From the NCBI RefSeq assembly GCF_016820655.1, contig NZ_WSFT01000037.1:1-24000 (forward strand): a stretch of DNA of 24,000 nt. The letters are read 5' to 3'. Below, piece by piece: positions 1 to 15,722 of this stretch (position 1 is the first letter of the stretch; each line of letters starts with the position of its first letter). The position numbers and the translations under genes were made by a program. Under the pieces are notes generated by a model, which did no database searches, was not told the DNA's origin, and was given only the letters and a program-made list of their open reading frames with translations. The DNA comes from Anaeromonas frigoriresistens. Lineage in GTDB: Bacteria; Bacillota; Clostridia; Tissierellales; SIT17.

Positions 1-62
1 TGTTCCACTATTAATACCTTACCTAAGGCTATGCCCGGAGAAGCACTAGTACCTGTAAACAT
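1..62 (-). CDS. ptsI: PTS enzyme I (PEP-protein phosphotransferase), first ~20 codons only; the gene runs off the left edge
   Basis: Too short for the ORF track. The reverse complement of 1-62 reads ATG TTT ACA GGT ... = MFTGTSASPGIALGKVLIVE, which matches the conserved EI N-terminus (ASPGIA.GK). A GAAAGGGG SD lies at 70-77, 7 nt upstream. The gene sits 14 nt after the HPr stop, in the classic ptsH-ptsI order. Confidence 0.7.
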   Translation of the reverse strand, partial: MFTGTSASPGIALGKVLIVE

Positions 63-76
63 ATAATTACCCCTTT

Positions 77-343
77 CTAAGCTTGATTGAAATTTGATTC
101 TATTAATTTTACTAATCCTTCAACTGCTTCTTTCTCATCGCTACCTTCAGCTATAATTGTAATTATATCTCCTTCAACTGCTCCCATGCTTAAGATTCCC
201 ATTATACTCTTAGCATTGTATTCTTTATCACCGTTTATTGCTTTAATTTCTGATTTATATTTAGAGGATTCACTAACAAAAAGACTGGCTGGTCTTGCAT
301 GTAATCCTGTTTTATTTGTTATTTTAACTTCACTTTTAATCAT
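77..343 (-). CDS. ptsH: Phosphocarrier protein HPr
   Basis: 88 aa. The His15 active-site motif TNKTGLHARPAS and the Ser46 regulatory motif NAKSIMGILSMG are both intact. SD AAGAGG lies upstream. Confidence 0.95.
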   Translation of the reverse strand: MIKSEVKITNKTGLHARPASLFVSESSKYKSEIKAINGDKEYNAKSIMGILSMGAVEGDIITIIAEGSDEKEAVEGLVKLIESNFNQA

Positions 344-367: not shown

Positions 368-1102
368 TTAGTTTATATTTAGATATTCTGCTATTTCTTT
401 ATCTATTATTATTGTTACATTAGAATGTACTTGTAGTATAGATGCTGGTACATTTGTACTAACCTTACCATCTATTATTTTAGAGATAATCTCTTTTTTG
501 TTCTCTCCATTGGCCAATAAAAGTATCCTTTTTGATTTCATTATCGATGCTAATCCCATAGTAATTGCTTTCTTAGGTACTTCTTCTATAGAATCGAAGA
601 ATCTGCTGTTTGCTTTGATTGTATTTGTCTCTAAATCAACTAGGTGGGTACCAGTAGATAATTCTTCTCCAGGTTCATTAAATCCTATATGTCCATTGAC
701 TCCTATTCCTAATAGTTGAAGATCTATTCCACCCTTCTTTTCTATCAAGGCATCATAATCTTTACATTCTTTCTCTATATCTTCTGTTAATCCATTTGGA
801 ATATGAGTGTTGTTCATATTAATATTCACATTATTAAATAAATTCTTTTTCATGAAGTATGAATAACTTTGTTCATGAGTTGAATCTAATCCATAGTACT
901 CATCTAAATTAAATGTCTCAACTTTAGAAAAGTCTAAGTCTTCCTCTCTATGCAAATTCACTAGTTCCTTATAGGTACCTATAGGTGTACTCCCTGTAGC
1001 TAGACCTAGTATAGGATTAGATTTTGTTTTTATTTCTTGGGCAATTATATCAGCTGCCTTTTTACTTAATTCTTCATAATCTTTCGCTACTATTATTTTC
1101 AT
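368..1102 (-). CDS. nagB: Glucosamine-6-phosphate deaminase/isomerase
   Basis: 244 aa. MKIIV..LGLATGSTPIGTYKEL..FNLDEY..IGVNGHIGFNEPG are typical NagB motifs. SD GGAGGA lies 8 nt upstream. The start is 1 nt after the upstream gene's stop. Confidence 0.95.
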   Translation of the reverse strand: MKIIVAKDYEELSKKAADIIAQEIKTKSNPILGLATGSTPIGTYKELVNLHREEDLDFSKVETFNLDEYYGLDSTHEQSYSYFMKKNLFNNVNINMNNTHIPNGLTEDIEKECKDYDALIEKKGGIDLQLLGIGVNGHIGFNEPGEELSTGTHLVDLETNTIKANSRFFDSIEEVPKKAITMGLASIMKSKRILLLANGENKKEIISKIIDGKVSTNVPASILQVHSNVTIIIDKEIAEYLNIN

Positions 1103-1103
1103 G

Positions 1104-2318
1104 TTACTTATCCTCCACTAATAACCTATAGAAACTCTCACCATTTTCAGGGTTTGATACATTAAAATACTCAGCTACTGTAGCTGCTATATCTGATAGA
1201 GTCTCTCTCTCTCCGATATTAATATTATTTAACCCTTTGCCATATGCCAGTAGAAATGTTTTTTCTCTAGTATGTTGACTATGACCAATAGTAGGATCAT
1301 TCCCATGATCTGCACTTATAAAGAGAATATCTTCCTCAGTCATTTTTTCTAATATATTTCCTAGATATTTATCTGCAAGCATAATTTTATCCGCATATCC
1401 TTGAATATCTTCTGCATGGCCTCTCAAATCTGTTTCTTGAACGGTGGCTGAGATTAATCCTTCATTCATTTTATCTATATTTTCTATTATTTTTTTCATT
1501 ACTAGTTCAGTATCTACTGCCGGTATTTTTGTTGCTTTTTCACATTCTATTATATCTTGCATTTTACCTATTAAGGTAACTTCTCTATTTTCTTTAGTTA
1601 AAATACTTGAAATTTGTTTAGAAGGGTCTACCCCATATCCCATATGTCTAGCTTGATAATCTTTTTTATATACTCCTGATTTTGGTGAATTAACTCCAAC
1701 TAAACCATCATCTCGCTGTTCTATGCTATTAATGAGTTGCTCTGGACTAACTTCATGACCCCCTAAGGCTATTACCCTATTTACTTTTACATTTTTCCTT
1801 ACAACTTGTCCTATTTCCATAACTTTTTCAAAGGATATATAGTCTAATGGAGCACTTATATTGTATATCTGTCCATAATCAGTTTCTATATTATCTGCTA
1901 CTATAACTACTTTATTAACTAATAAATATTGTTTTTCTAGGTCAGGTATTTCTACTTCATAGCCTTCTTTTTCTAAAGCTTCTTTTACTTCATCTATACA
2001 ATCAACAAAGGGTTTCATCAAAGGTTTTTTAGGATCAGTACCCATTATTTCCTGATGCCCTGCGTAACTATCTGCTCCATAATGTTTAAGGTTTAGCTTA
2101 CCATAACTACCTTCATTCTCAACACTTTTTAGTCTCTCATGCTTTAAAATTTTATTTATACCTAACTTTTCTAAATTAGGTATCTCTATTTTATCAGCTT
2201 TATCTAATATATGTTGAAAGGTATTAGCTCCTTTATCTTGGGGTCTAGTCTCCACTACATCATCCATGTAGCCCACCCCTAAACTATCTAATATTAGTAC
2301 AATTGCTCTTTTTTTCAA
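1104..2318 (-). CDS. YhfW-like phosphopentomutase-family metalloenzyme (alkaline-phosphatase superfamily phosphomutase)
   Basis: 404 aa. The N-terminus KKRAIVLILDSLGVGYMDD and the motif SADHGNDPT(I)GHS are the DeoB/YhfW-type metal-binding motifs. The start codon is TTG (plus-strand caa at 2316-2318), preceded by AAGGCGGTGA. Confidence 0.85.
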   Translation of the reverse strand: MKKRAIVLILDSLGVGYMDDVVETRPQDKGANTFQHILDKADKIEIPNLEKLGINKILKHERLKSVENEGSYGKLNLKHYGADSYAGHQEIMGTDPKKPLMKPFVDCIDEVKEALEKEGYEVEIPDLEKQYLLVNKVVIVADNIETDYGQIYNISAPLDYISFEKVMEIGQVVRKNVKVNRVIALGGHEVSPEQLINSIEQRDDGLVGVNSPKSGVYKKDYQARHMGYGVDPSKQISSILTKENREVTLIGKMQDIIECEKATKIPAVDTELVMKKIIENIDKMNEGLISATVQETDLRGHAEDIQGYADKIMLADKYLGNILEKMTEEDILFISADHGNDPTIGHSQHTREKTFLLAYGKGLNNINIGERETLSDIAATVAEYFNVSNPENGESFYRLLVEDK

Positions 2319-2331
2319 TTAAATCACCGCC

Positions 2332-3507
2332 TTATCTAAGTTTATTTCCAAAACTGTCATAAACTCCAATAATTCTAGGTTCATCCTTTTGTATTCCTTC
2401 TACTAAGACAACTTCACTTCTTGTTACAAATATTTGTGTTCTAAAGGAATAGATTACAGTATCTCCTACTGATGCTTTTTTCTCTCCTATTTTTAAAGTC
2501 CCATAATAATCTATAGATTCTGGAGATACTTCTTCCGCTTCTAGTATATTTTCTTTCATAGCTTTAAAGTCTGTACCAACCATTGCTTTTTTTAATCTAG
2601 ATCTTCTATAAAATCCTCCCCCATATACATAGGCTTTATCTTCAAAACAATGGGATATCTCACTTAAATAAATCATAGCCGGTATCTCTTCTAACACATT
2701 ATTCCCATGAAGAGGAGTGGTTCCTGTTAGGGCGTGACCTGGTTCTCCATGGGTTCCCCCTATTTCTTTGAGTAATGGTAAAGATGCTATAGTGTTAGCA
2801 CTAGGAGTATTTATCTGCTTTATATCTATATCCAATTCTTCACTTAGTTTATTTGCACACCTTATTGCTGTATTTGCATTTTCTGTAGGTTGAATTTGAT
2901 TTTCATTACAGGTATATAAAAAGCATGGGAAGGCTGTAACTCCTACTATATTTACACCTTGTAGCATTTTTATTTCTTTTGCCTTTTTTATTAATTCTTC
3001 TTCTTTAAATCCTCCAACTTGACCTTCATAAATCATATCCTTAGATCCTACTACTTTTAGTAGTATATCCTGTTTCATTCCTAAATTTATAGCTTCTTCT
3101 GATATCTCTTTTGCTTTTTCTACAGTAAAGACAGTAATAACTTCTGGTTTATAAAATAATATTTGTTTAATCATATTAGTAGGTATTTGAACTAAATGTC
3201 CAACATTTCCTAATTTTATCCCAGCTTCAGCTAATCTTATTGCTTCCCAAGGGTCCACTGCCACAGCTTTTTCTATACCACTTTCAGCAATCACTTTAGC
3301 TACTTCAGGGTTCCTTCCTATCTGTTTTGTCATCATATATAATTTTATATTTAATTCTTCAGCTTTCTTTGCAAGTTTTGTAGCATTAGATCTTATAGCA
3401 TCTATATCTAGGATGTATGAATTAGGCTTTATGTCTCCATTTCTATGAAAATCAATTGCGCTTTTTATCAGTCCTTCATTTCTTTTTATCGTCATATCTA
3501 GAAACAT
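2332..3507 (-). CDS. YhfX-like PLP enzyme (alanine-racemase N-terminal, fold-type III; putative amino-acid racemase/lyase)
   Basis: 391 aa. Candidate PLP-lysine context LYMMTKQIGRNP, with a TIM-barrel-like N-terminal part and a beta C-terminal part. The start abuts the upstream stop (3508). SD AAGGAAGGTGAG. Confidence 0.75.
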   Translation of the reverse strand: MFLDMTIKRNEGLIKSAIDFHRNGDIKPNSYILDIDAIRSNATKLAKKAEELNIKLYMMTKQIGRNPEVAKVIAESGIEKAVAVDPWEAIRLAEAGIKLGNVGHLVQIPTNMIKQILFYKPEVITVFTVEKAKEISEEAINLGMKQDILLKVVGSKDMIYEGQVGGFKEEELIKKAKEIKMLQGVNIVGVTAFPCFLYTCNENQIQPTENANTAIRCANKLSEELDIDIKQINTPSANTIASLPLLKEIGGTHGEPGHALTGTTPLHGNNVLEEIPAMIYLSEISHCFEDKAYVYGGGFYRRSRLKKAMVGTDFKAMKENILEAEEVSPESIDYYGTLKIGEKKASVGDTVIYSFRTQIFVTRSEVVLVEGIQKDEPRIIGVYDSFGNKLR

Positions 3508-4614
3508 TTATTTCTCACCTTCCTTTAAAACCCTTTTTATAGATTCTTCTAATACTCGAAGAACTGTATTTGAACCTGATCTCATCGGATTTATACGTAT
3601 CATATAATCCTCCAATTTAGGATCCGATTTTAGGAAGGTACCTGAAACTCTATAAAACATAGCCGTCACTTCATATCTTGATTCAGCTCCTATTGGGTAA
3701 GGTGCCGCACCTAATTTTGTACTGTTTTCTAGAACTTTTTTAGCTATAGGCTCCTCAAATTCTACTAATATTACTCTAGATTGAGCATTTGCTATAAATG
3801 CTGATTTAACCCCTTCTACTCTTCCAGCATTTAATATTTCTATTACTTTATTAATTTCCTGAGCTTGTATTGCTAAAGATACAGGAGCATATACTAGGGA
3901 TCTTAAGGCATCCATAGCTTCATGACCTTGAACTTGGCTACCTCCTGAATAGTTAATTCTTCGTATTTCTTCTATTATATTTTTCTTTCCCACTACACAG
4001 CCTACTCCTTGAGGTCCTAATAGTTTAAATAAAGAAAAAGCGCTGACATCTGCTCCTAACTCTATTCCTATTTTTTCAGCTTTCATTACAACATAATTAT
4101 CATCTATTAATATAGTAATACCCTTATTTACATCTTTAATTTTTTTTATAACTACTTCTAAATCATATTTATCATCTAACTTTTGTCTTGAGTGTTGTAT
4201 AAGTGCAAAATCTACAGCTTTAAATTTTTCTTTATCTTCCTCTAAAATATTGTTAAAGTCTACCTTCAGAGTTTCCAATCCCATAGATTCTACTATAATC
4301 TTTGTTGTTGGATATATAGGAGCATCATGGATTAATATTTTTTGTGTAGGTTTTAGAACTGAATTCATAACATTTCTTATGGCTCCTGTGCCTGACCCTC
4401 GAACTAGGACAGCATCTTCTGCTCCAAAAAATTGAGCTAGAACATTTTCCACTTTTCGAGTATATTTAGGTTGACCTATTCCTGGTACTACTCCTAGGTC
4501 TCCTCCTTGAAAAAATTCATTCCCATCAAAATTTTGATGGATTATATCAACTAATTTAAATTGCATTTCTTTTGCTTTTTCTATATCTACAGTCCTTATA
4601 GGATATGCTTTCAT
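3508..4614 (-). CDS. YhfS-like PLP-dependent enzyme (fold-type I, aminotransferase/SelA-like)
   Basis: 368 aa. Glycine-rich loop RGSGTGAI, aspartate ILIDDNY, and candidate Schiff-base lysine in SAFSLFKLLGPQG. SD TAGGAGG. Confidence 0.75.
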   Translation of the reverse strand: MKAYPIRTVDIEKAKEMQFKLVDIIHQNFDGNEFFQGGDLGVVPGIGQPKYTRKVENVLAQFFGAEDAVLVRGSGTGAIRNVMNSVLKPTQKILIHDAPIYPTTKIIVESMGLETLKVDFNNILEEDKEKFKAVDFALIQHSRQKLDDKYDLEVVIKKIKDVNKGITILIDDNYVVMKAEKIGIELGADVSAFSLFKLLGPQGVGCVVGKKNIIEEIRRINYSGGSQVQGHEAMDALRSLVYAPVSLAIQAQEINKVIEILNAGRVEGVKSAFIANAQSRVILVEFEEPIAKKVLENSTKLGAAPYPIGAESRYEVTAMFYRVSGTFLKSDPKLEDYMIRINPMRSGSNTVLRVLEESIKRVLKEGEK

Positions 4615-4625
4615 ATATAAACCTC

Positions 4626-5534
4626 CTATATATCTAATAAGTTTTTTGGATTTTGTTTTAACATAGTATCAATTTCTTCTTTACTTACTCCTGCTTTTAA
4701 AAGTTTCGGAATAAAATTATCTAATAAATAACTATATCCAATTCCTCCATTGACAGCTAAGTGAGATTTCCTAGTTATGTCTTGAGATAATACTATTTGA
4801 TTTAAATGTCCTCTATTTATTAACTCTTTAATATGTTTCACCCTATTTTCATCAGATTGATAATTAGATTTACCAATGGTATCAAAGGCCAAGTAACATC
4901 CATTATCAGCAATTCTTAGATGATAATCTAAATCACAATTTAAGTCTAAATGACCGATTACCACTTTATTAAGATCAATATTATTTTCTTTCATAAATTT
5001 TATTTGCTCTAATGCATAGGTCCCTAATGTTGTATGGGTTGAAAATGGTCTTCCTGTTTCAATGTGTGCCCTTGCTGCTACTTTAAATACCTTGTGTTCC
5101 ATCGGTGTCATAGTATCTTTACTAGTACCAATTTCTCCTATTACATGAGCTTTTGCATTAGTCCCATCTATTCCTTCTAATATATCTTTAATCAATAATT
5201 TACTTAGCTCTTTCTTTTCCATTTCATATACGTAAGATGGTAAAAATGGTTCCTTGTAAAATCCAGTGCTAGCTACTACATGAATTCCCGCCTCATTAGA
5301 TATTTTTTTCATTACTTCTATGTTTCTACCCATACCTCTATTTGTAACTTCTACAAGAGTATCTATACCTTTTTCCTTTATTAATTTCATTTCTTTAATC
5401 AAAGATTCTATATCATCAAATCTCGTATCTAAATCTTTCTTTTGTGATGATAAATCTATACTTAAATGTTCATGTATATAGGTGTTTCCTAAGTCATCTT
5501 TATTAATTATTCCATTAATAGTTGCTATACTCAT
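4626..5534 (-). CDS. php: Phosphotriesterase homology protein (amidohydrolase superfamily, Php/YhfV type)
   Basis: 302 aa. HxH motif TYIHEHLSIDL, bridging-Glu context VIGEIGTS (as in E. coli Php rather than a carbamylated Lys), and later His/Asp ligands STHTT, IGHLD, LSQD. SD AGGAGGG. Confidence 0.9.
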   Translation of the reverse strand: MSIATINGIINKDDLGNTYIHEHLSIDLSSQKKDLDTRFDDIESLIKEMKLIKEKGIDTLVEVTNRGMGRNIEVMKKISNEAGIHVVASTGFYKEPFLPSYVYEMEKKELSKLLIKDILEGIDGTNAKAHVIGEIGTSKDTMTPMEHKVFKVAARAHIETGRPFSTHTTLGTYALEQIKFMKENNIDLNKVVIGHLDLNCDLDYHLRIADNGCYLAFDTIGKSNYQSDENRVKHIKELINRGHLNQIVLSQDITRKSHLAVNGGIGYSYLLDNFIPKLLKAGVSKEEIDTMLKQNPKNLLDI

Positions 5535-5555: not shown

Positions 5556-6674
5556 CTAAATAAAGCCCTTATTCTTTTTCTTATATCCTTCTATAAAATA
5601 TCTGCTATATAATTCTGGAACAGAATACAGTTTTCTTATCATATCACCTAATTTTATAGCTGATTTCCCACTTTCTAGTCCCTTCTTTGCAATAATTAAT
5701 ACTCCTATCCCTAATTCCCTAGTGGGAATAGTTACAGCAGTAGCATCAATCATATTAGCTACTTTTAATAGATATTTTCCAGACTCATTCTGTATATTAG
5801 AGCCAACCTTCCCCCATGTACCTAACACTGAATCTCCTAAACCATATATATCTATCGGTCCTTCCATTGTGATGATAATATCTATATCTTCTTTAAATAT
5901 TTCCTCACAAAAAGGAATCGCCTCAAGTCTACTTTCTATCTTATTAAAATCTTTTTCAATTATTTCTACAGAATCTTTAATCCCATCTATAACTCCATTT
6001 AAAGATTCCCTCATGTCTATTCCATTTGGTAATAAAATAGATTCTTTTTTAGGGATAACAATTTTTATTTTTTCATTTTTGTTTTCATCAATACTTACAT
6101 TTTTTTTAGTTATAAGAGTTTCTATTGCTGATTTACATATATCATAACTATGAGATATAACTCCAATCCCTGGAGTGAACTTTATATTATCAGTTGATGC
6201 TTTAATACTAGTTCCTTTAAGCCCCATTCCCTTAGCCATTATCGAAAATAAACCAGTACTAATTGCAGGAGCTAAAACTGATCCGCCCCCATCTGTTCCT
6301 ATTGCCAAATCATTTATTCCTTTTAGTATGTTAACGCATCCTCCACTGGATGAACCTGTCATTACTCTGCCAGTTAATGGATTTATTAAGTCTATATCTA
6401 TAGCCCTACCTCTTTCGGACATCTTATCTATAGTATGAAATAAATAACCATTATTTTCTTTTAATCTTTCTACCAGTTTTTTATCTATTTCTTCTGTATT
6501 CTTAACACCAAATAATACTAAAGAACTATCCGGATTTTCTTCCAGAGTAATAACAGCTTCTTCCAATATTTCTTTTCTACAATATACTACACTACCTTCT
6601 TCTTCCTTAGCCTTTAAGACTGCTTTACTTACTTTATTCATTTGCATTAGTATATTTTTCTGTGTTGAATCCAT
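5556..6674 (-). CDS. Divergent, short amidase-signature (AS) family protein
   Basis: 372 aa. AS core MTGSSSGGCVNILKGINDLAIGTDGGGSVLAPA corresponds to canonical GGSSGG...GTD.GGS(I/V)R.PA, so the cis-Ser and the nucleophile Ser are retained. Candidate Lys in VLFGVKNT. SD AAAGGAG. Confidence 0.6.
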   Translation of the reverse strand: MDSTQKNILMQMNKVSKAVLKAKEEEGSVVYCRKEILEEAVITLEENPDSSLVLFGVKNTEEIDKKLVERLKENNGYLFHTIDKMSERGRAIDIDLINPLTGRVMTGSSSGGCVNILKGINDLAIGTDGGGSVLAPAISTGLFSIMAKGMGLKGTSIKASTDNIKFTPGIGVISHSYDICKSAIETLITKKNVSIDENKNEKIKIVIPKKESILLPNGIDMRESLNGVIDGIKDSVEIIEKDFNKIESRLEAIPFCEEIFKEDIDIIITMEGPIDIYGLGDSVLGTWGKVGSNIQNESGKYLLKVANMIDATAVTIPTRELGIGVLIIAKKGLESGKSAIKLGDMIRKLYSVPELYSRYFIEGYKKKNKGFI

Positions 6675-6744: not shown

Positions 6745-8025
6745 TTATGCTGGAGGTGTAAATAATCCTATTACTGAAAGAATGTTAACTAATATTCCTA
6801 CTATTATTGCAGATATTGGTCCTACTGCCATTTTAACTACTGGTTTACCTGCTATTTCATTTAATATATAAAGACCTATAACAATAAAGAACCCTATACC
6901 AGGAGCAATCGCATTAGCAGCATTCATACCCCCTACTAATAGTGCTATTTCTAGAAGTTTTGACATTGCAGTACGGATATTATCGCCAGACTTTCTTACT
7001 CCAGGGAATTTATCTAAAAGCTTTGAAATTTTATCTAGGAATAATACTTCTCCACCTATAACAAGAGCACCAGCAATAGCTGCTACGATAGGATTCGCGA
7101 TAAATAAACCTATTGCGAATACAAATGTCATTCCTACAGGGGCATATACTCCAGTTGCTATAGCAGTTGATGCTATTAAAGGTATAAATCCTATACCTCT
7201 TGCTAAAGCTGCAAAACCAGCGTCAATTGCTTTTCCATCTTTTAATAAGTTAAGAGATATTGGGTCTCCTGCCATAAGATCCATAGCAGTAGCTGCTGCC
7301 ACAAGACCACCCATAACCATTAAGTATGGTACATTTTTCTTGATTCTCTTTACTCTCTCTCCAAATACAGACACTAAGTCCACAGCTTCTTCATCTGATT
7401 TTTCTCTTACTGCAAAAATAATTAATATAATCATACCTACAATTAGAGCAGAACCTTCTGGATTAATATTTATTGAAACTGCTCCTATAGCTAATGGACT
7501 TACTACTATGGCTAATTGTCTTGCTAATACTGAAAATCCTAAATTTATTAAACCTTTTTTAGCTCCATACTGATATCCAGTAGCAAGAGCTGGGAATGCT
7601 GCAAAGGCTATTACTATTGGAGCTCCTACTTCCCCTAAACTTCCCATGAAGTTAACAGGTAGTAATTCGAAAGCTTTTACTATACTTTCTAATCCAAGTA
7701 ATATTCCTGCACCATATAAAGCACCTATTATCCCAGAGATTACTAGTCCTTTTTTGCCATCTGGTGAAGATGTACCAATTATATCTGTACCTAATAATAT
7801 TGAATGTATCAGAATAATACTTGCTGTTAATGAAAATGGGATACCAAACCCTATAACTAATCCAAAACTCATTGCAAAAGAAGTAGCTGCAAGTTCTTTT
7901 CTACTCATTCTTCCCTCGATATGTTCTGGCATTATAGGTCTTAACCCGTCATTAAATACTGCTATACCTTTATTGGCCATAATAGAAGCTAAGGCTCCAA
8001 TTAAAGCTATTAATATGATATTCAT
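6745..8025 (-). CDS. YhfT-like polytopic membrane protein (putative transporter)
   Basis: 426 aa. Almost entirely hydrophobic and Gly/Ala/Ile-rich, with about 10-12 spans by eye. It sits next to a DUF2620 gene, as in the E. coli yhfU-yhfT pair. SD AAGGGGGAAG. Confidence 0.8.
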   Translation of the reverse strand: MNIILIALIGALASIMANKGIAVFNDGLRPIMPEHIEGRMSRKELAATSFAMSFGLVIGFGIPFSLTASIILIHSILLGTDIIGTSSPDGKKGLVISGIIGALYGAGILLGLESIVKAFELLPVNFMGSLGEVGAPIVIAFAAFPALATGYQYGAKKGLINLGFSVLARQLAIVVSPLAIGAVSININPEGSALIVGMIILIIFAVREKSDEEAVDLVSVFGERVKRIKKNVPYLMVMGGLVAAATAMDLMAGDPISLNLLKDGKAIDAGFAALARGIGFIPLIASTAIATGVYAPVGMTFVFAIGLFIANPIVAAIAGALVIGGEVLFLDKISKLLDKFPGVRKSGDNIRTAMSKLLEIALLVGGMNAANAIAPGIGFFIVIGLYILNEIAGKPVVKMAVGPISAIIVGILVNILSVIGLFTPPA

Positions 8026-8047
8026 TGTCTTCCCCCTTAATTATTAT

Positions 8048-8410
8048 TTATTTTTTTAAAATTTCATTTACAATAATAGGAACTGCTTTTTCGTAATGAT
8101 CACCAGTAAATCCAAATGCTACTTTTCCTTCTGATACTGCCTTAACTATTTCTTCTTCTTTAGGTTGCTTACCTGGCATAGATACTGTTGCACATTTATC
8201 TCTAGTTAATAAAGCTATGGCCATACTTAATGCTCCACCACCACCAGTGTGACAAGCTCCTAAATAATAATCAGCCTTTCCTGTCTTAACAGCATTAGCA
8301 GCTTGTATATCAGATTTTACTACTACTTCTACCTTTTCACCCCCTAATTCTTTTACTAAATCAGCTATACTCTGTTTTTCTACTTGTCCACCAACTACAA
8401 ATTTAATCAT
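8048..8410 (-). CDS. YhfU-like small soluble protein (DUF2620)
   Basis: 120 aa. Beta-alpha N-terminus MIKFVVGGQ. Cys-His in a glycine-rich loop, YYLGACHTGGGGALSMAIAL. SD GAGGAGG. Confidence 0.75.
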   Translation of the reverse strand: MIKFVVGGQVEKQSIADLVKELGGEKVEVVVKSDIQAANAVKTGKADYYLGACHTGGGGALSMAIALLTRDKCATVSMPGKQPKEEEIVKAVSEGKVAFGFTGDHYEKAVPIIVNEILKK

Positions 8411-8427: not shown

Positions 8428-8787
8428 TTATTTTTTTACTAAAGTACATGCATGCAATGCTAAGAATCCTTTTTCTGATTCTGGTATTTCTATATTTAGT
8501 TTTGTTTCAATTGCTTCATAAAATTCAGGTAGTTCACAATAAATTTCACTTTGTTTAACTTCTTCTAATGCCATTTCATTCATCTCTTCTATTTCTTCAC
8601 CTTTCTTTATCCTAGATAAAGCCATAGCTAAATGAGTCACTAACATAGAGGAATTTTCTTCGGTCATTTCTAAGGAATATTTGTTTTCGAATTTACTAAT
8701 AAATTCTAAAGTAGCCTCCTTTATATCTTGACTTATCTCGCCAGCTTCTTTTAATATATCCAGTCTTTGTTTCAGTAATTTATCCAT
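8428..8787 (-). CDS. YhfY-like stand-alone PRD-domain protein
   Basis: The track ORF starts at 8814, but GGAGGG sits 8 nt before the ATG at 8787 (MDKLLKQRLD...). It is a single PRD with both conserved His contexts (LVTHLAMALSRIKKGE and GFLALHACTL). No RNA-binding, DNA-binding or EII domain is present. Confidence 0.8.
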   Translation of the reverse strand: MDKLLKQRLDILKEAGEISQDIKEATLEFISKFENKYSLEMTEENSSMLVTHLAMALSRIKKGEEIEEMNEMALEEVKQSEIYCELPEFYEAIETKLNIEIPESEKGFLALHACTLVKK

Positions 8788-8809
8788 TTTTAAAACCCTC
8801 CACTCAATG

Positions 8810-8827
8810 TACATTTTTTTGTATATT
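8810..8827 (-). promoter_or_regulatory. Copy 1 of an 18-bp conserved motif (plus strand TACATTTTTTTGTATATT; gene strand AATATACAAAAAAATGTA), 23 nt upstream of the yhfY-like start
   Basis: Identical to 9804-9821. Contains the inverted repeat TACA-N8-TGTA (ATACA-N6-TGTAT in copy 2). Confidence 0.4.
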
Positions 8828-8840
8828 AATCTAAAAAAAA

Positions 8841-9779
8841 CTAATATATTGGTATTATTTCATTATTCATAACTTTTTTTTGAATTTTTTCTACTTCTTT
8901 TAAATCAATAAATCTATTTAATATATTTCCAAATTCTTTATTATTCTTACTTATTACAACCACTGCTATAGTATCTTCTTTAGCAAGTTCTCTTGTCTTC
9001 TTGCTTGATAAAGGACAAATATTATATTCTAGATTTTTTTCCTTTATCTCATCCACATTCCAAATAGCTGCATCAACTTCATCATTCTTCATTTTTTGTA
9101 GTATTTGATTATAAGGAGTTTCTACGTACTCCACTTCCTTATCTCTACATTCATTTGAAGTAAGTATTACTTGATCTATAGAATTAGTATCTATTGCTAT
9201 TCTCATGCCATCTTTAATATTACTTTCATTTTTATCTCTAAAAATCACAACATGATTTCCTACATAACTACCTTCGCCAAATTCATGTACTATTTCAATA
9301 TCAGAAGATTTTCTTATTTCTAATTTAGCTGCTAACTTTGAAATTATAGTAAAACTATATTTACCTAATGTTAATGCTTCTATTCTTTTTGAAGACCCTC
9401 TCATAAAAGCTAAACTGAAAGGTATATCTCTTTCCTCAAAACCTTTATAAAGACCAGTAGCTAACCCCTCATATCTTTTAGAATAAGGTAAAGGCATTAC
9501 CCCCATTATTACACTGAAATCCGAGACTTCCCATAGTTTTTTATAATTTATTCTAACTATATAAGTACCTAAATGGCCTCTAGATTCTAATTCTAACCCA
9601 TTAATTTCTTGTAGAAACTTAAGGGCTGATTGAACTGTACCTCTTGCTGTATTAAAAATTTCAGTATATTGACTTACTGTCTTTATTCTATCACCTTCAT
9701 AATAAGTCAACATTTCTCTAGCTAATAGTATAATTACTCTTCCATTTTTGGACATTAGTTTATTTTTATAATCATTCAT
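8841..9779 (-). CDS. YhfZ-like transcriptional regulator (N-terminal wHTH plus periplasmic-binding-protein-like effector domain)
   Basis: 312 aa. HTH region IKTVSQYTEIFNTARGTVQSALKFLQE, followed by a PBP type-2-like alpha/beta domain. It is the first gene of the cluster. GAGAGG lies 11 nt upstream of the ATG. Confidence 0.75.
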   Translation of the reverse strand: MNDYKNKLMSKNGRVIILLAREMLTYYEGDRIKTVSQYTEIFNTARGTVQSALKFLQEINGLELESRGHLGTYIVRINYKKLWEVSDFSVIMGVMPLPYSKRYEGLATGLYKGFEERDIPFSLAFMRGSSKRIEALTLGKYSFTIISKLAAKLEIRKSSDIEIVHEFGEGSYVGNHVVIFRDKNESNIKDGMRIAIDTNSIDQVILTSNECRDKEVEYVETPYNQILQKMKNDEVDAAIWNVDEIKEKNLEYNICPLSSKKTRELAKEDTIAVVVISKNNKEFGNILNRFIDLKEVEKIQKKVMNNEIIPIY

Positions 9780-9829: not shown

Positions 9830-9857
9830 ATTATAACAGATTAAATATAAAATTCAA
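9830..9857 (-). promoter_or_regulatory. Sigma-A-type promoter of the yhf-like operon
   Basis: The minus strand reads TTGAAT-16 nt-TATAAT with TGT immediately upstream of the -10 (extended -10). On the plus strand, ATTCAA is at 9852-9857 and ATTATA at 9830-9835. Confidence 0.55.
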
Positions 9858-11551: not shown

Positions 11552-12502
11552 TTAAATTGAAAATTCAAAATCGTCTATTGAATATTCATCATCTTTATCT
11601 TCATTTTTATCTTCACTTTCTCTTTTGCAAGAATCAGATAATAGGGGTAAATCACAAGCTTTAGCTCTAGATGGGAAAAGTATCACTTGTTCATAATTAG
11701 TCGGATACAAATCTGCATCAAACTCTTCTGTTATTGGTTTATCAATAATGTTGTCATTTTCATCATATTGACTATTTAATACATCTACAATTATATTTCC
11801 AATTTGTCTACCTAGCCGTAATCCTTCTGAAAGATCAGCTGGAAAATGTACCCCACCATATAGTCTAGATAATGAATTTTCTTCTGCTAATTCTCTTAAC
11901 TTATTAGCTTCTGATGGAAAGAAATAGCTTAGTATAACTTCTGCTGTCCCAGAAATAACTGAATGTCCAGAAGGATAAGCTGGAAATTTAGGAGTACATA
12001 TCTCTGTAACTAATTCTTGATCTAGCTGGTTTGGTCGTGCTACATCCCAAAGATACTTATAGTACCAAGCAACTATAAAAGCATCATTTATACCAGCATG
12101 AACTGCTGCTAGTACTCTAGCTGCATATACAGGAGTAAGTCTGTAAGTATCTATTAGTCTATCAATTATGGGTGTCCACTGTTTAGTTGCAGGCCCATCT
12201 CCCCAATACTCTGCTATTACTTTCTCCTCCTGAGTCAGATTATCCAGGGTTTCTTTAACTATTAAAAGCTCTTTATTGAAGTTAAAATAGTCTGGATTCA
12301 ATATATCAAAATTAATAACTTTACCATCTAATGTTGTAAACTCTCCTTCTGTATTTCTATCCATAAAATACAATGGCCATGATCCAGCATTAGGATCTAG
12401 TCCCTGGGGAACTGTGTCTTCTCCTGCATATGGTAATTCAGACCATTTTCTTGACAAATTTATATCTGAACATTTTTTATTTTTATATGAGTCTATATTC
12501 AT
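11552..12502 (-). CDS. PAP2-superfamily / vanadium-haloperoxidase-like protein (acid-phosphatase-related), soluble, no signal peptide
   Basis: 316 aa. All three PAP2 motifs are present: KYLWDVARP (Kx6RP), PSGHS, and SRLYGGVHFPAD (SRx5Hx3D). I see no N-terminal hydrophobic segment. The C-terminal tail is acidic (ESEDKNEDKDDEYSIDDFEFSI). SD GGAGGG. Confidence 0.75.
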   Translation of the reverse strand: MNIDSYKNKKCSDINLSRKWSELPYAGEDTVPQGLDPNAGSWPLYFMDRNTEGEFTTLDGKVINFDILNPDYFNFNKELLIVKETLDNLTQEEKVIAEYWGDGPATKQWTPIIDRLIDTYRLTPVYAARVLAAVHAGINDAFIVAWYYKYLWDVARPNQLDQELVTEICTPKFPAYPSGHSVISGTAEVILSYFFPSEANKLRELAEENSLSRLYGGVHFPADLSEGLRLGRQIGNIIVDVLNSQYDENDNIIDKPITEEFDADLYPTNYEQVILFPSRAKACDLPLLSDSCKRESEDKNEDKDDEYSIDDFEFSI

Positions 12503-12665
12503 AGTAACCCTCCAACATATGACTTTTCTTAGTTCAATATATGTTAGAAAATATTTCTATGATACTAATGGTGTGTTAAATTCAGAATATTTTTTTAATT
12601 TTTAGATATATATCATATATTATGATAAAATAGACTATAATATTAAAGGTGGGAGGGTTGTACTT

Positions 12666-14675
12666 ATGGTGAAATCAAGTAAAAACTTAACTTTATTATT
12701 TTACTTTTTGATATCTTTTATATATATAGAAATCATTTTTAGAAATTTTACTATCGGTGATATTTGGACTTTTGGACTTATATATTCTTTTATTTTTATG
12801 AGTACCATCGGAATTATTTTCTTTATTATATGTAGTTATTTTAATGGAGGAGTACAAAAAATCATAGGAGTTTTATTGTTAACATCTATTGCGTTCATAT
12901 ACTCTTCCCAACTAATCTACTATAAAATATTTAAAACTTTTTATAGCTTATATTCTGCCAGTAATGCTTCTCAAGTTCTAGAGTTTTCTAAAGATATATG
13001 GTCAATAACTCAAAATAACTTAATTTTAATCTTCCTATTATTTATTCCATCTATCATGTTAATTATCTTTGGAAATAAAATAATACCTCTTAAAAAAGTC
13101 AAATGGTACTATAAAACTGCACTAGTAGGATGTATTATTATATCTCATATTATAGGTATTGTTACTTTGTTTTTCAGTGATAAAGATCAATACTCTGCTT
13201 ATGATTTATATTTTGATAGTACTTCTATGAATCTATCTGTAAGTAAATTAGGATTAATAACTACAATGAGACTAGATTTACAAAGACAGTTAACTGGATG
13301 GTCTCCAGAGTTAAAGACAGACAATATTGATATTGCAGAGTATTCAAAGTATAAAGCTAGTAAAAATATTTTAAAAAAAGAGCCTACAGAACAAACAAAA
13401 GTAGAGTACAACACTATGGATATTGACTTTGATGGATTGATATCTACGGAAAGTAATAAATCCATCAAAGAAATGCATGAATACTTTAATTCCATACCTC
13501 CTACACCCAAGAATGAATACACTGGGAAGTTTAAAGGATATAACCTTATATTCATAACTGCCGAGAGCTTTTCTCCCTATGCAGTTCATGAAGATTTAAC
13601 CCCCACTCTCTATAAGTTAGTAAATGAAGGTTATAATTTTACAAACTTTTATAACCCTATCTGGGGTGTAAGTACAACGGATGGTGAATATGTAGCCTGC
13701 ACTGGATTAATTCCTAAAGATGGAGTATGGAGTTTTCTTAAATCTAGTGATAATCATCTTCCTTTTGTTATGGGAAATCAATTGAAAAATTTAGGATATA
13801 AAACAGTAGCATATCATAATCATAGTTATAAATATTATGATAGACATTTATCCCATCCTAATATGGGCTATGAATATAAGGGAATAGGAAATGGTCTTAA
13901 AGTAAAAAAAACTTGGCCTGAATCTGATATAGAAATGATGGAGAAAAGCATCCCTGAATATATAGATAACGAGCCTTTCCACGCCTATTATATGACTGTA
14001 AGTGGTCATATGCAATATAACTTCTTTGGAAACTATATTGCCTTAAAGAATAAAAAATTAGTAGATCACCTGCCCTACTCTACTGAGGCAAAAGCTTATA
14101 TATCTACTCAGATTGAATTAGATAAGTCATTGGAGTACCTCCTGGATAAACTAGAAGAAAAGGGTGTGGCTGATAAGACACTTATAGTATTAAGCTCCGA
14201 TCATTATCCTTATGGACTAAACAAAGAAACAATAGATGAATTAGCCGGTCATCCAGTCGAGGAAAATTTTGAAATATATAAAAGTCCACTCATTATTTAT
14301 GCTAAAGGTATGGAGCAGGTTACTATTGATAAGCCTTCTTCAAGCTTAGATATAATCCCTACTGTTTCTAATTTACTAGGATTGGAGTATGACTCAAGAC
14401 TCCTTATGGGTAGGGATATATTCTCTGATTTTGATCCTTTAGTTATCTTTCAGAATAAAAGTTATATAACTAATAGAGGTAAGTATAACTCAATTACTAA
14501 AGAGTTTATTCCTAATAAAGATGAGGTAATAGAAAATGAATATATAAATATGTTTTCATATATTGTCAATAGTAAATTCTACTATTCTGCAAAGATTCTT
14601 GAAACAGATTATTATAATAAAATATTAGATGAATATAAGAAAAAAATAGCTCAAAATTCAACAGGAGAAGAATAG
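12666..14675 (+). CDS. LTA-synthase (LtaS)/sulfatase-family membrane enzyme (polyglycerolphosphate or phosphoglycerol transferase-like)
   Basis: 669 aa. The N-terminal ~200 aa carries about 5 TM helices, followed by an alkaline-phosphatase-superfamily domain (LIFITAESFSPY, nucleophile region GVSTTDGEY, LSSDHYPYG). SD GGTGGGAGGG. Confidence 0.85.
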   Translation: MVKSSKNLTLLFYFLISFIYIEIIFRNFTIGDIWTFGLIYSFIFMSTIGIIFFIICSYFNGGVQKIIGVLLLTSIAFIYSSQLIYYKIFKTFYSLYSASNASQVLEFSKDIWSITQNNLILIFLLFIPSIMLIIFGNKIIPLKKVKWYYKTALVGCIIISHIIGIVTLFFSDKDQYSAYDLYFDSTSMNLSVSKLGLITTMRLDLQRQLTGWSPELKTDNIDIAEYSKYKASKNILKKEPTEQTKVEYNTMDIDFDGLISTESNKSIKEMHEYFNSIPPTPKNEYTGKFKGYNLIFITAESFSPYAVHEDLTPTLYKLVNEGYNFTNFYNPIWGVSTTDGEYVACTGLIPKDGVWSFLKSSDNHLPFVMGNQLKNLGYKTVAYHNHSYKYYDRHLSHPNMGYEYKGIGNGLKVKKTWPESDIEMMEKSIPEYIDNEPFHAYYMTVSGHMQYNFFGNYIALKNKKLVDHLPYSTEAKAYISTQIELDKSLEYLLDKLEEKGVADKTLIVLSSDHYPYGLNKETIDELAGHPVEENFEIYKSPLIIYAKGMEQVTIDKPSSSLDIIPTVSNLLGLEYDSRLLMGRDIFSDFDPLVIFQNKSYITNRGKYNSITKEFIPNKDEVIENEYINMFSYIVNSKFYYSAKILETDYYNKILDEYKKKIAQNSTGEE

Positions 14676-14700
14676 AATTCCTCTCCTTATTATTTTTCTT
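14663..14700. terminator. Probable bidirectional terminator between convergent genes
   Basis: AGGAGAAGAAT-AGA-ATTCCTCTCCT (6 bp + 1 mismatch + 4 bp stem), followed by TATTATTTTTCTT on the plus strand. The loop contains the LtaS-like stop codon. Confidence 0.55.
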
Positions 14701-14947
14701 TCCAATACTTAGAGCCATCCCTTTTTCTGGACAATAGTTTATAATCAATCATTCCTCTTCTTATCATGAAATAATCTCCATAAGTATGCCATTTATCAAT
14801 GATATCATTTACTTCTTTTTCACTATATTCTTTACCTTCTTCAAATTTATCAGCTATGTATTTTACTACTTCTATTTTTAATAAATGTTTTGAAGGCCAA
14901 CTTTTGACTCTTCCCTTTTCATCTAAGAAGTTTTCAAATTTAGACAT
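14690..14947 (-). CDS. DUF2087 domain protein (small)
   Basis: The track ORF extends to 15019 and overlaps the upstream gene. AAAGGTAGGGGAG precedes the ATG at 14947 (MSKFENFLDEKGRVKSWPSK...). The C-terminus YFMIRRGMIDYKLLSRKRDGSKYWK is the DUF2087 signature. It is paralogous to the C-terminus of the upstream gene. Confidence 0.7.
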   Translation of the reverse strand: MSKFENFLDEKGRVKSWPSKHLLKIEVVKYIADKFEEGKEYSEKEVNDIIDKWHTYGDYFMIRRGMIDYKLLSRKRDGSKYWKEK

Positions 14948-14957
14948 TTTATCTCCC

Positions 14958-15722
14958 CTACCTTTCTTTAATCCAATAGCTACTACAATCTTTAGTTCTA
15001 TCAAAAAATCCATATTCAATTAAATATCGTCTTATAGTAGCTATATCAGGATAAATTAATTTTAATATATTGTTTAATTCTTTTTCTGTGTACTTTTTTT
15101 CTTGATCAAATATTGATGCAATCTCTCTTAAAACAGAAATTTTTCTTTTCTCCTTTGATGGAAAGGATTTTAATATTAATGGATCTTGTGATTCAAAATA
15201 TGTGTTTATTACCTTCTTATGTTCATTATTAGTTATAATGTATCGTTCATCTAACATTTTTGCTCCTCCATGAGGTTTAACTAATCTCTCCTTTGAATCT
15301 TGATTAGTTAATAACTCCACCGACTCAAAAATTGCCAGATATAATTTTGCCTGTTTAGCCTTTTCTCTAAGTATGAATCTTTGATGTCTAACTGTGGAAG
15401 GGGCTATTCCATTCTTCTTAGCAATTTCCTTGTCCGATAGCCCTTTAGATATATCTTTTAATAAACTACTTTGTTTTTCAGTTATGCCAGTATATTTTTT
15501 ATCATAACTTAGTAAATTTTCTAATACTCCTCCATGTACTACCTTATTGTGCTCTTTTATTGCTTTATATGCTTCATATAAACGGTTTTCTATTTCATAA
15601 ATTCGTCCAATCTCAAAGATATCCCCACATTGTAAACATTTATAATGTTCTTCTTTGGAATTAAACTTGTAACCATTTTTTATTTCATTTAACTCCGAAT
15701 CAAAAATTTGGTTATCCATCAT
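14958..15722 (-). CDS. Transcriptional regulator: Cys-containing N-terminal region, LuxR/GerE-like HTH and C-terminal DUF2087 domain
   Basis: 254 aa. HTH LSDKEIAKKNGIAPSTVRHQRFILREKA. C-terminal KISVLREIASIF..YTEKELNNILKLIYPDIATIRRYLIEYGFFDRTKDCSSYWIK parallels the downstream small protein. GGAGGG lies 2 nt before the first ATG and 5 nt before the second (15719). Confidence 0.7.
   Translation of the reverse strand: MMDNQIFDSELNEIKNGYKFNSKEEHYKCLQCGDIFEIGRIYEIENRLYEAYKAIKEHNKVVHGGVLENLLSYDKKYTGITEKQSSLLKDISKGLSDKEIAKKNGIAPSTVRHQRFILREKAKQAKLYLAIFESVELLTNQDSKERLVKPHGGAKMLDERYIITNNEHKKVINTYFESQDPLILKSFPSKEKRKISVLREIASIFDQEKKYTEKELNNILKLIYPDIATIRRYLIEYGFFDRTKDCSSYWIKER

Follow-up and report, generated by a model that had tools for sequence, protein, structure and literature searches.

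A conserved trio of a PRD protein, YhfU and YhfT in yhf operons as a possible non-canonical phosphoryl relay of the PTS

The window analysed here, 24 kb of DNA (30% GC) from Anaeromonas frigoriresistens, whose YhfT is 100% identical to that of Clostridium sp. D2Q-11 (another name for this organism), carries a yhf catabolic operon that encodes YhfU, a small cysteine protein of the DUF2620 family, YhfT, a polytopic membrane protein, and YhfY, a stand-alone PTS regulation domain (PRD) protein, together with HPr and the start of Enzyme I (EI) of the phosphoenolpyruvate (PEP)-dependent phosphotransferase system (PTS). A preliminary description of the window had proposed that YhfU and YhfT could be an unrecognised pair resembling the EIIB and EIIC components of PTS Enzyme II (EII), with Cys53 of YhfU as the phospho-acceptor. 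The operon is a single co-directional array on the minus strand, running from 9779 to the window edge with intergenic gaps of 0–70 nt. A promoter-like site lies at 9857–9830, ahead of yhfZ, and no terminator-like site was found between the operon genes. In operon order, the features are as follows.

8841..9779, minus strand: yhfZ, the operon's first gene, HTH_41 + YhfZ_C regulator (NF041241, E 1e-121)
8428..8814, minus strand: yhfY, stand-alone PRD protein (PF00874, E 1e-14)
8048..8410, minus strand: yhfU, DUF2620 protein of 120 aa beginning MIKFVVGG (PF10941, E 2e-48)
8219..8269, minus strand: conserved loop of yhfU, YYLGACHTGGGGALSMA, with the Cys53 codon at 8252-8254 (translation)
6745..8025, minus strand: yhfT, polytopic membrane protein of 426 aa (PF10797, E 3e-180)
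5556..6674, minus strand: amidase-signature-like protein of 372 aa (partial PF01425 match)
4626..5534, minus strand: php (yhfV), phosphotriesterase-homology amidohydrolase (PF02126, E 7.5e-91)
3508..4614, minus strand: yhfS, fold-type I pyridoxal phosphate (PLP) enzyme (PF22475 + PF00266)
2332..3507, minus strand: yhfX, alanine-racemase-fold PLP enzyme (PF21279 + PF01168)
1104..2318, minus strand: yhfW, phosphopentomutase-family phosphomutase (NF009049, E 6e-171)
368..1102, minus strand: nagB-like, glucosamine-6-phosphate deaminase/isomerase-like (PF01182, E 2e-25)
77..343, minus strand: ptsH, HPr, 24 nt after nagB (TIGR01003, E 2.4e-28)
1..61, minus strand: ptsI, first 20 codons of EI, MFTGTSASPGIALGKVLIVE, cut by the window end

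No EIIA, EIIB or EIIC family was matched when all open reading frames (ORFs) of at least 85 aa in the 24 kb were scanned with Pfam and NCBIfam, in agreement with the preliminary description, and the operon gaps of 0–70 nt leave no space for an unseen gene. Its account of the individual genes was also borne out: HPr has intact motifs around His15 (GLHARPA) and Ser46 (AKSIMGIL), EI begins at position 61 on the minus strand with MFTGTSASPGIALGKVLIVE, the PRD protein has both histidine contexts (VTHLAMALSR and LALHACTL), and yhfU is correctly described in length, N-terminus, loop, Cys53 and its 22-nt gap to the downstream yhfT. The claim that YhfT is the only membrane protein holds for the operon but not for the window, in which MATE, PAP2, ECF-S, ABC-2 and SLAC1-type proteins are encoded outside the operon. 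The true start of yhfY is probably the Met at codon 10.

YhfU scores 163.8 bits against PF10941 (cut-off 25) and belongs to a small family, a profile search of 1.84 billion cluster representatives having returned 174 matches at E ≤0.001, one of which (P0377) is a repetitive false positive. Non-conservation of Cys53 had been set beforehand as refuting its proposed role, and the role survives this check. Among 48 diverse homologues (28–80% identity) Cys53 and Gly51 are the only invariant positions, with G8, D34, D47, G56, G58, L61, F99 and G100 near-invariant and with Thr or Ser at position 55 in the homologues inspected. The ‘Cys-His’ pairing that had been taken as a feature of the loop is not one, since residue 54 varies (H/Y/S/A/N/Q/W) while Cys53 does not. 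The AlphaFold (AF2) model of YhfU, with a predicted local distance difference test score (pLDDT) of 97, is a five-stranded flavodoxin-type α/β domain in which Cys53 is the last residue of strand 3; a Gly-rich loop comes next, and then the N-terminus of a helix. On this face of the fold, where active sites usually lie, the predicted geometry around Cys53 is one that favours anion binding and a low pKa.

Structure and sequence comparisons both relate YhfU to the RpiB/LacAB family (PF02502; e.g. E. coli RpiB, PDB 1o1x, 5ifz). In a Foldseek search of the PDB with the YhfU model, the five best matches are all RpiB (template modelling (TM) score 0.63–0.66, probability 1.00) and share its β–α order. 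Next come generic flavodoxin and CheY folds, at TM ≤0.51, and no EIIB occurs among the 50 PDB matches listed. Hidden Markov model (HMM) scans of the 48 homologues gave sub-threshold matches to Gly_rich_SFCGS in 17 and to LacAB_rpiB in six (best E 0.009), the latter always below the gathering threshold (13.7 bits for E. coli YhfU, cut-off 24.7), and no PTS-family HMM matched any of the 48 at E ≤1. By hhalign, the diverse YhfU profile is colinear with the whole of E. coli RpiB, so that C53 and T55 of the Cys-x-Thr-Gly-x-Gly loop stand opposite the catalytic Cys66 and Thr68. The other functional residues of RpiB are missing: the catalytic Asp9/His10 and His99/Asn100 are aligned to Gly-Gly and Ser/Glu-Glu/Gly, and YhfU, about 30 residues shorter, ends before residue 133, leaving the phosphate-binding Arg133/His134/Arg137 without counterpart. 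The same program found nothing when YhfU was aligned with ChbB, GatB and a Lac-type EIIB, and with UlaB gave an 18-column loop match only, with C53 opposite UlaB Cys9. Searches of PDB sequences by phmmer and hmmsearch yielded spurious matches only (cytochrome c6, flavodoxin, alphaRep).

Because the fold matches agree with the HMM and hhalign results and the other RpiB residues are missing, YhfU is taken to be a stripped-down RpiB/LacAB-fold domain that keeps only the Cys-x-Thr-Gly-x-Gly loop, rather than an EIIB. It is true that YhfU resembles the EIIBs of the Lac, Gat and Asc families (PF02302; ChbB, GatB, UlaB) in being a small (100–120 aa) α/β protein with an invariant Cys ahead of a small-residue loop at a helix N-terminus, and in that its gene neighbours specify a membrane partner and a PRD protein, joined in several lineages by HPr and EI. 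However, EIIBs of these types carry their phospho-Cys in a β1–α1 P-loop, after strand 1 of a four-stranded sheet, whereas the Cys of YhfU follows strand 3 of a five-stranded one. YhfU also differs in having no HMM or fold match to EIIB, no EIIA partner and a membrane partner that is not EIIC-like. Membership of YhfU in the Lac/Gat/Asc EIIB families is thus rejected.

YhfT matches PF10797 (600.2 bits, cut-off 26.1) and no other Pfam family, with no secondary signal, and its AF2 model (pLDDT 80) is all-helical. No structural relative was found in the PDB, where no listed match exceeds TM 0.24 and the top match, LeuT, reaches TM 0.14–0.17, and no internal repeat emerged when its two halves were aligned with each other by hhalign. 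The proposed EIIC-like nature of YhfT is not supported either, as neither HMM nor PDB fold similarity links it to any EIIC (Glc/Lac, Asc/Gat, Man, Gut); to our knowledge, Gut-type EIIC has no solved structure. Judging by the model, the fold of this membrane protein would be one that solved structures have yet to show, and YhfT is presumed to be the translocator.

We compared the window with 82 loci, 80 from a one-genome-per-species scan and two from large replicons (Bacillus thuringiensis, Cetobacterium). YhfT was matched in all 82, YhfS in 78, YhfZ in 77, Php and YhfX in 76 each, YhfW in 71, the amidase-like protein in 44, NagB in nine, HPr in four and EI in two. The PRD was matched by tblastn in 75 loci, and a divergent PRD ORF family adds further positive loci, which places a PRD in essentially all 82. 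YhfT is accompanied by yhfU in every locus, and in 78 of the 82 yhfU lies immediately upstream of yhfT. PRD, YhfU and YhfT move as a block where the enzyme genes are reordered, and the three occur together in divergent metagenomic contexts as well; they form the universal trio of these clusters. For comparison, the E. coli K-12 core reads yhfZ-yhfY-yhfX-yhfW-php-yhfU-yhfT-yhfS, with no HPr, EI, NagB or amidase. The operon enzymes belong to phosphosugar-acting families. Clustering of neighbouring ORFs revealed no recurrent kinase, EIIA, EIIB or EIIC in or around the 82 operons, and none of the four is present in the annotated metagenomic contexts.

A closer tie between YhfU and the PRD is found in metagenomic contigs of 64–70% GC, where the two are fused into a 267-aa YhfU::PRD protein. 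The fusion was seen in six proteins (P0303, P0391-P0395), down to 55% identity, all of them colinear with YhfU plus YhfY of the window and all keeping the Cys and both PRD histidines. In a related high-GC lineage the yhfU and PRD genes are separate yet overlapping. The fused protein resembles an EIIB–EIIA arrangement. In the high-GC clade an unrelated GntR/UTRA regulator takes the place of YhfZ, yet PRD and YhfU are retained, so the constant partner of the PRD is YhfU and not a DNA-binding protein. Other apparent fusions were set aside: P0258 and P0366 are read-throughs of adjacent php/yhfU genes, P0306 is yhfU-yhfT with an out-of-frame linker, and the long N-terminal extension of P0397 probably overlaps an opposite-strand GntR gene. 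In E. coli K-12 yhfY (L001:17061-17423), the first PRD histidine is kept (MTHMASALMR) and Asn replaces the second (LLANLYG).

HPr and EI genes have joined the operon in several lineages. HPr alone is found right after the last enzyme gene in Geosporobacter (L009) and in a Bacillota metagenome-assembled genome (MAG; L054), and HPr plus EI directly after yhfW in a Treponema MAG (L042) and Paenibacillus tyrfis (L083). Identity to the window HPr is 33–49%, except in the close relative Geosporobacter (72%), and these values, along with the differing junctions, point to separate recruitments in which ptsH/ptsI would have been appended independently in different lineages. In the high-GC clade, all five contexts with enough DNA carry YhfU::PRD, YhfW, YhfX, HPr and EI, some of them with DUF2620 followed by a separate PRD gene in place of the fusion. 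A KDPG/KHG-type aldolase comes next in three of the five, and the genes overlap by 1–4 nt (checked in L104). Genes for YhfT, a PTE-family protein and an SDR are found close by, and a divergent unit encodes a 2-hydroxyacid dehydrogenase, a GPI-cupin, a YhfS-like protein, a class-III aminotransferase and SIS proteins. Counting the window and nine others, ptsH with or without ptsI is appended in ten separate contexts, drawn from Clostridia, Paenibacillus, the Treponema MAG, another Bacillota MAG and the high-GC clade.

Since the PRD is universal and ptsH or ptsHI was recruited in ten contexts, involvement of the PTS in the module, whether catalytic or regulatory only, is close to certain. The notion that general ptsHI genes were parked beside the operon by chance, with YhfU and YhfT unconnected to the PTS, is effectively refuted by the comparative data and retains scarcely any probability. 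The window HPr does have a normal Ser46 and a housekeeping look, and pts genes are not adjacent to most yhf operons. Nevertheless, appended ptsH, with or without ptsI, in ten separate contexts, with differing junctions and some gene overlaps, has to be set against a random-placement expectation far below one, the cluster always includes a PRD protein, and HPr identities of 33–49% speak against one recent transfer.

We favour, tentatively, a catalytic role for the PTS, in which YhfU, YhfT and YhfY would be the uptake-and-phosphorylation module of the yhf catabolic operon. Phosphate would pass from PEP through EI to His15 of HPr. The next acceptor would be Cys53 of YhfU, reached straight from HPr or, as is more likely, by way of a PRD histidine, the stand-alone PRD then standing in for EIIA. 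Phosphorylated Cys53 would then phosphorylate the substrate, probably an amino-sugar derivative, during import by YhfT or just after, and the product would feed phosphosugar-type enzymes such as the YhfW mutase and NagB or, in other clades, the SIS, GPI-cupin and KDPG-aldolase proteins. We infer each of these phosphotransfer steps, as well as that Cys53 is the acceptor, that the PRD is a relay and that phosphorylation is coupled to transport. A catalytic role is favoured because the operons encode phosphosugar-family enzymes but no kinase, because the invariant Cys has a phosphate-friendly geometry, and because YhfU::PRD resembles EIIB–EIIA and phosphoryl exchange between an EIIB Cys and a PRD His is established PTS chemistry (BglF/BglG). 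It is favoured also because EI and HPr are encoded distally, with translational coupling, in an inducible catabolic operon, a position that would suit a catalytic need over upstream sensing. Of the original proposal, membership in known EIIB and EIIC families is therefore lost, while the idea of a non-canonical module centred on Cys53 survives and is strengthened, at the level of sequence comparison, by the invariance of Cys53, the trio, the fusion, the recruitment of HPr and EI and the lack of a kinase. Taken as a whole, we would put such a PTS-dependent relay through Cys53 at a little under an even chance.

A number of observations weigh against this relay. In two loci yhfU is ~8 kb away from yhfT, and in E. 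coli YhfY the second PRD histidine is absent. HPr and EI are not found near 78 of the 82 comparison loci, nor in the E. coli operon, and most operons depend on pts genes encoded elsewhere. No context offers an EIIA as part of the module, we know of no precedent for a catalytic relay from HPr or a PRD to a Cys, and HPr may serve solely to phosphorylate the PRD, a known HPr target. The closest structural and sequence neighbours of YhfU are isomerases (RpiB/LacAB) and not phosphocarriers, and an RpiB-type catalytic base would just as readily account for an invariant Cys. Other means of uptake and phosphorylation also occur. A canonical PTS with a DUF871/MupG-like gene lies inside or beside the operon in three loci (two, L012 and L023, inspected; the third from ORF clustering only), so another route to the phosphorylated substrate exists in at least some genomes. 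In the high-GC contexts L104:1749-5666 and L095:4598-8489, the genes of a sugar-type ABC importer (periplasmic binding protein, ATPase and permease) adjoin YhfT or the yhf cluster, and YhfT may not be the sole uptake route there.

An alternative is that the PTS link is regulatory only, a reading that we consider rather unlikely. Phosphorylated HPr would then phosphorylate the PRD, and YhfY and YhfU would form a split sensor docking on YhfT, itself a secondary carrier or transceptor; the sensor would report substrate flux and PTS state to YhfZ or GntR/UTRA, the substrate being phosphorylated elsewhere or never. The lack of EIIA and, in most operons, of their own HPr and EI fits such a scheme, as does the regulator-type architecture of the YhfU::PRD fusion. 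Among the PRD activators MtlR, LicR, LevR and DgaR, the PRD is covalently joined to a Cys- or His-phosphorylatable PTS-like domain, as it is to YhfU in the fusion, and the first three contain EIIB-like Cys domains. YhfU::PRD differs from all of these in having no DNA-binding or AAA+ domain and in having an RpiB fold instead of EIIB-Gat, the yhf regulator (YhfZ or GntR/UTRA) being a separate protein. Control by HPr and EII has been described for such activators, together with the control logic of PRDs in PTS regulators, and PRDs are known targets of both (PMC4987338). A sensor needed before induction would, however, be oddly served by EI and HPr that are co-transcribed and translationally coupled at the distal catabolic end. 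Retention of PRD and YhfU where GntR/UTRA replaces YhfZ also marks YhfU as the partner of the PRD, and the missing kinase is left unexplained. Another live rival, offered as an alternative in the preliminary description, is that YhfU is an HPr-controlled accessory subunit of a secondary carrier.

The isomerase relationship of YhfU suggests another explanation, in which YhfU would be an isomerase or epimerase of the RpiB/LacAB superfamily with Cys53 as base and Thr55 as proton shuttle, YhfT would be an ordinary secondary carrier, and their adjacency would reflect operon history. The five RpiB structures at the head of the fold search, the LacAB_rpiB matches in six of 48 homologues and the full-length colinear alignment with E. 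coli RpiB, which pairs C53 with C66 and T55 with T68, are all as it would predict, and LacAB-type enzymes act on PTS products. Yet YhfU is without equivalents of Asp9/His10, His99/Asn100 and Arg133/His134/Arg137, and never reaches the Pfam threshold of the family. Unlike RpiB/LacAB, YhfU invariably comes with genes for a PRD protein and YhfT, and it is sometimes fused to the PRD. An enzyme gene is unlikely to stick to yhfT and the PRD gene while all other enzyme genes shuffle, and a conserved isomerase–PRD fusion would have no rationale. We regard this explanation as distinctly improbable.

A comparable gene set was named in the preliminary description, an orphan Enterococcus/Aeromonas cluster of a PRD protein with small glycine-rich Cys proteins and DUF membrane proteins, and this is broadly right. 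In EF_0829-EF_0833 and AHA_3910-3914, genes for a PRD, Gly_rich_SFCGS (PF14272), DUF4312, DUF4311 and DUF4310 stand together. Window YhfU matches Gly_rich_SFCGS below threshold (16.4 bits, cut-off 27.3; best E 8.4e-6 among the 17 matching homologues) and TIGR03577 (EF_0830/AHA_3911) likewise, and YhfY has a sub-threshold match to TIGR03582 (the EF_0829 PRD). These HMM cross-matches, with the gene list of one paper, suggest that SFCGS and DUF2620 are related but separate families. Both systems run from a PRD through a small Gly-rich Cys protein and one or more DUF membrane proteins to an amidohydrolase and a PLP enzyme, and the gene list names no kinase (PMC11934601). They differ in that the membrane part of the EF_0829-EF_0833 system is split into two DUF proteins plus DUF4312, and in that a DgaE-type lyase and KDGP aldolase occur there, in contrast to YhfW and YhfX here. 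The SFCGS family (EF_0830) was not found in the plasmid collection by tblastn with YhfU and YhfY, and weak PRD matches in Pediococcus, Radiobacillus and Proteus proved to be ordinary BglG-type antiterminators beside canonical EII genes.

DgaE, in work attributed to Miller et al. in 2013, is said to work on the 6-phosphorylated product of the D-glucosaminate PTS permease. The Salmonella operon dgaABCDEF supplies the enzymes of D-glucosaminate catabolism along with the PTS permease for this compound (PMC4987338). On a transposon of E. faecium, the genes for SFCGS, DUF4312, DUF4311 and DUF4310 precede those for an amidohydrolase, a DgaE-family lyase and KDGP aldolase (PMC11934601). By analogy, the SFCGS/DUF431x genes may occupy the place of the PTS permease. 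A bolder form of the relay would make PRD/DUF2620/YhfT an unrecognised class of PTS Enzyme II, built from a PRD relay, an RpiB-fold Cys carrier and a new-fold membrane protein, with the SFCGS/DUF4310-4312 set as its sister class; we hold this to be doubtful, if conceivable.

The PTS has been described with seven Enzyme II families, and a precedent for phosphoryl flux outside them exists in DhaK/DhaL/DhaM, where EI/HPr phosphate reaches non-EII, non-transport proteins that phosphorylate a metabolite. DhaM differs from the yhf module in using an EIIA-Man-like His domain, and the Dha system in having ADP as bound cofactor and in lacking a Cys carrier, a PRD and a membrane protein. If the proposed relay is true, an additional Enzyme II class would be built from a Cys carrier of isomerase fold, a novel membrane fold and a free PRD, PRDs would serve catalysis and not regulation alone, and a function would be provided for the E. 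coli yhfZYXW-php-yhfUTS operon, which comprises eight K-12 genes (yhfS to yhfZ, including php). In the literature searched, we found no functional study of yhfS-yhfZ, DUF2620, the YhfT family, SFCGS or DUF4310-4312. The high-GC operons, with their own EI, HPr and YhfU::PRD, would be natural material for reconstitution. Even if YhfU proves to be a regulatory partner or an enzyme, the PRD–YhfU–YhfT trio would define a new functional module.

The surroundings of the comparison operons give some indication of the substrate. In the congener Anaeromonas gelatinilytica D2Q-14 (L012:6625-9724), the position between yhfU and yhfT that measures only 22 nt in the window is filled by a full canonical Lac/Cel-type PTS, comprising an EIIB of 107 aa (Cys in MFVCAGGMST), an EIIC of 424 aa and an EIIA of 102 aa, together with a small membrane ORF and a 366-aa protein of DUF871/MupG-like type. 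In Caldanaerobacter subterraneus (L023:1081-4207), genes for a Crr-like EIIA-Glc, a Glc-family EIICB and a DUF871/MupG-like protein all lie directly upstream of yhfZ on the same strand. The DUF871-like neighbours in three loci hint at an amino-sugar or muropeptide-type compound as the one processed by the pathway. A metagenomic locus (L110:6788-8593) has a secreted-type GH18 protein (CBM_4_9, fn3, Glyco_hydro_18) just downstream of a minimal cluster of PRD, YhfW, YhfX, YhfU and YhfT, a pointer to a substrate derived from N-acetylglucosamine, chitin or a glycan. A secreted serine hydrolase of ~430 aa, beta-lactamase/D-aminopeptidase-like, recurs close beside the yhf operon, on its upstream or its downstream side, in 15 loci, namely L073 (14937-16226) and 14 other Bacillaceae-type loci. 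In three metagenomic loci of 31% GC (L099-L101; L099:4411-6800), HPr kinase/phosphorylase and lgt lie immediately upstream of yhfZ; we judged this link coincidental, as it fits the conserved Firmicute gene neighbourhood uvrA-hprK-lgt.

Some minor features of the window remain to be described. Within the operon, the PF01425 match of the 372-aa amidase-like protein covers residues 102-143 only (~40 aa, the GSSSGG region), and the protein is a divergent or truncated amidase-signature relative. Rfam and tRNA scans of the window gave no matches. At 14690-15722 on the minus strand, two adjacent DUF2087 genes have identical scores; one encodes a 254-aa protein with a LuxR/GerE-like helix-turn-helix and a C-terminal DUF2087, and its end is overlapped by the other, a short DUF2087-only ORF. 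At 11552-14675, a PAP2-superfamily protein (316 aa, minus strand) with a very acidic C-terminal tail adjoins a membrane-anchored, sulfatase/LtaS-like protein (669 aa, plus strand), neither gene being related to the operon.

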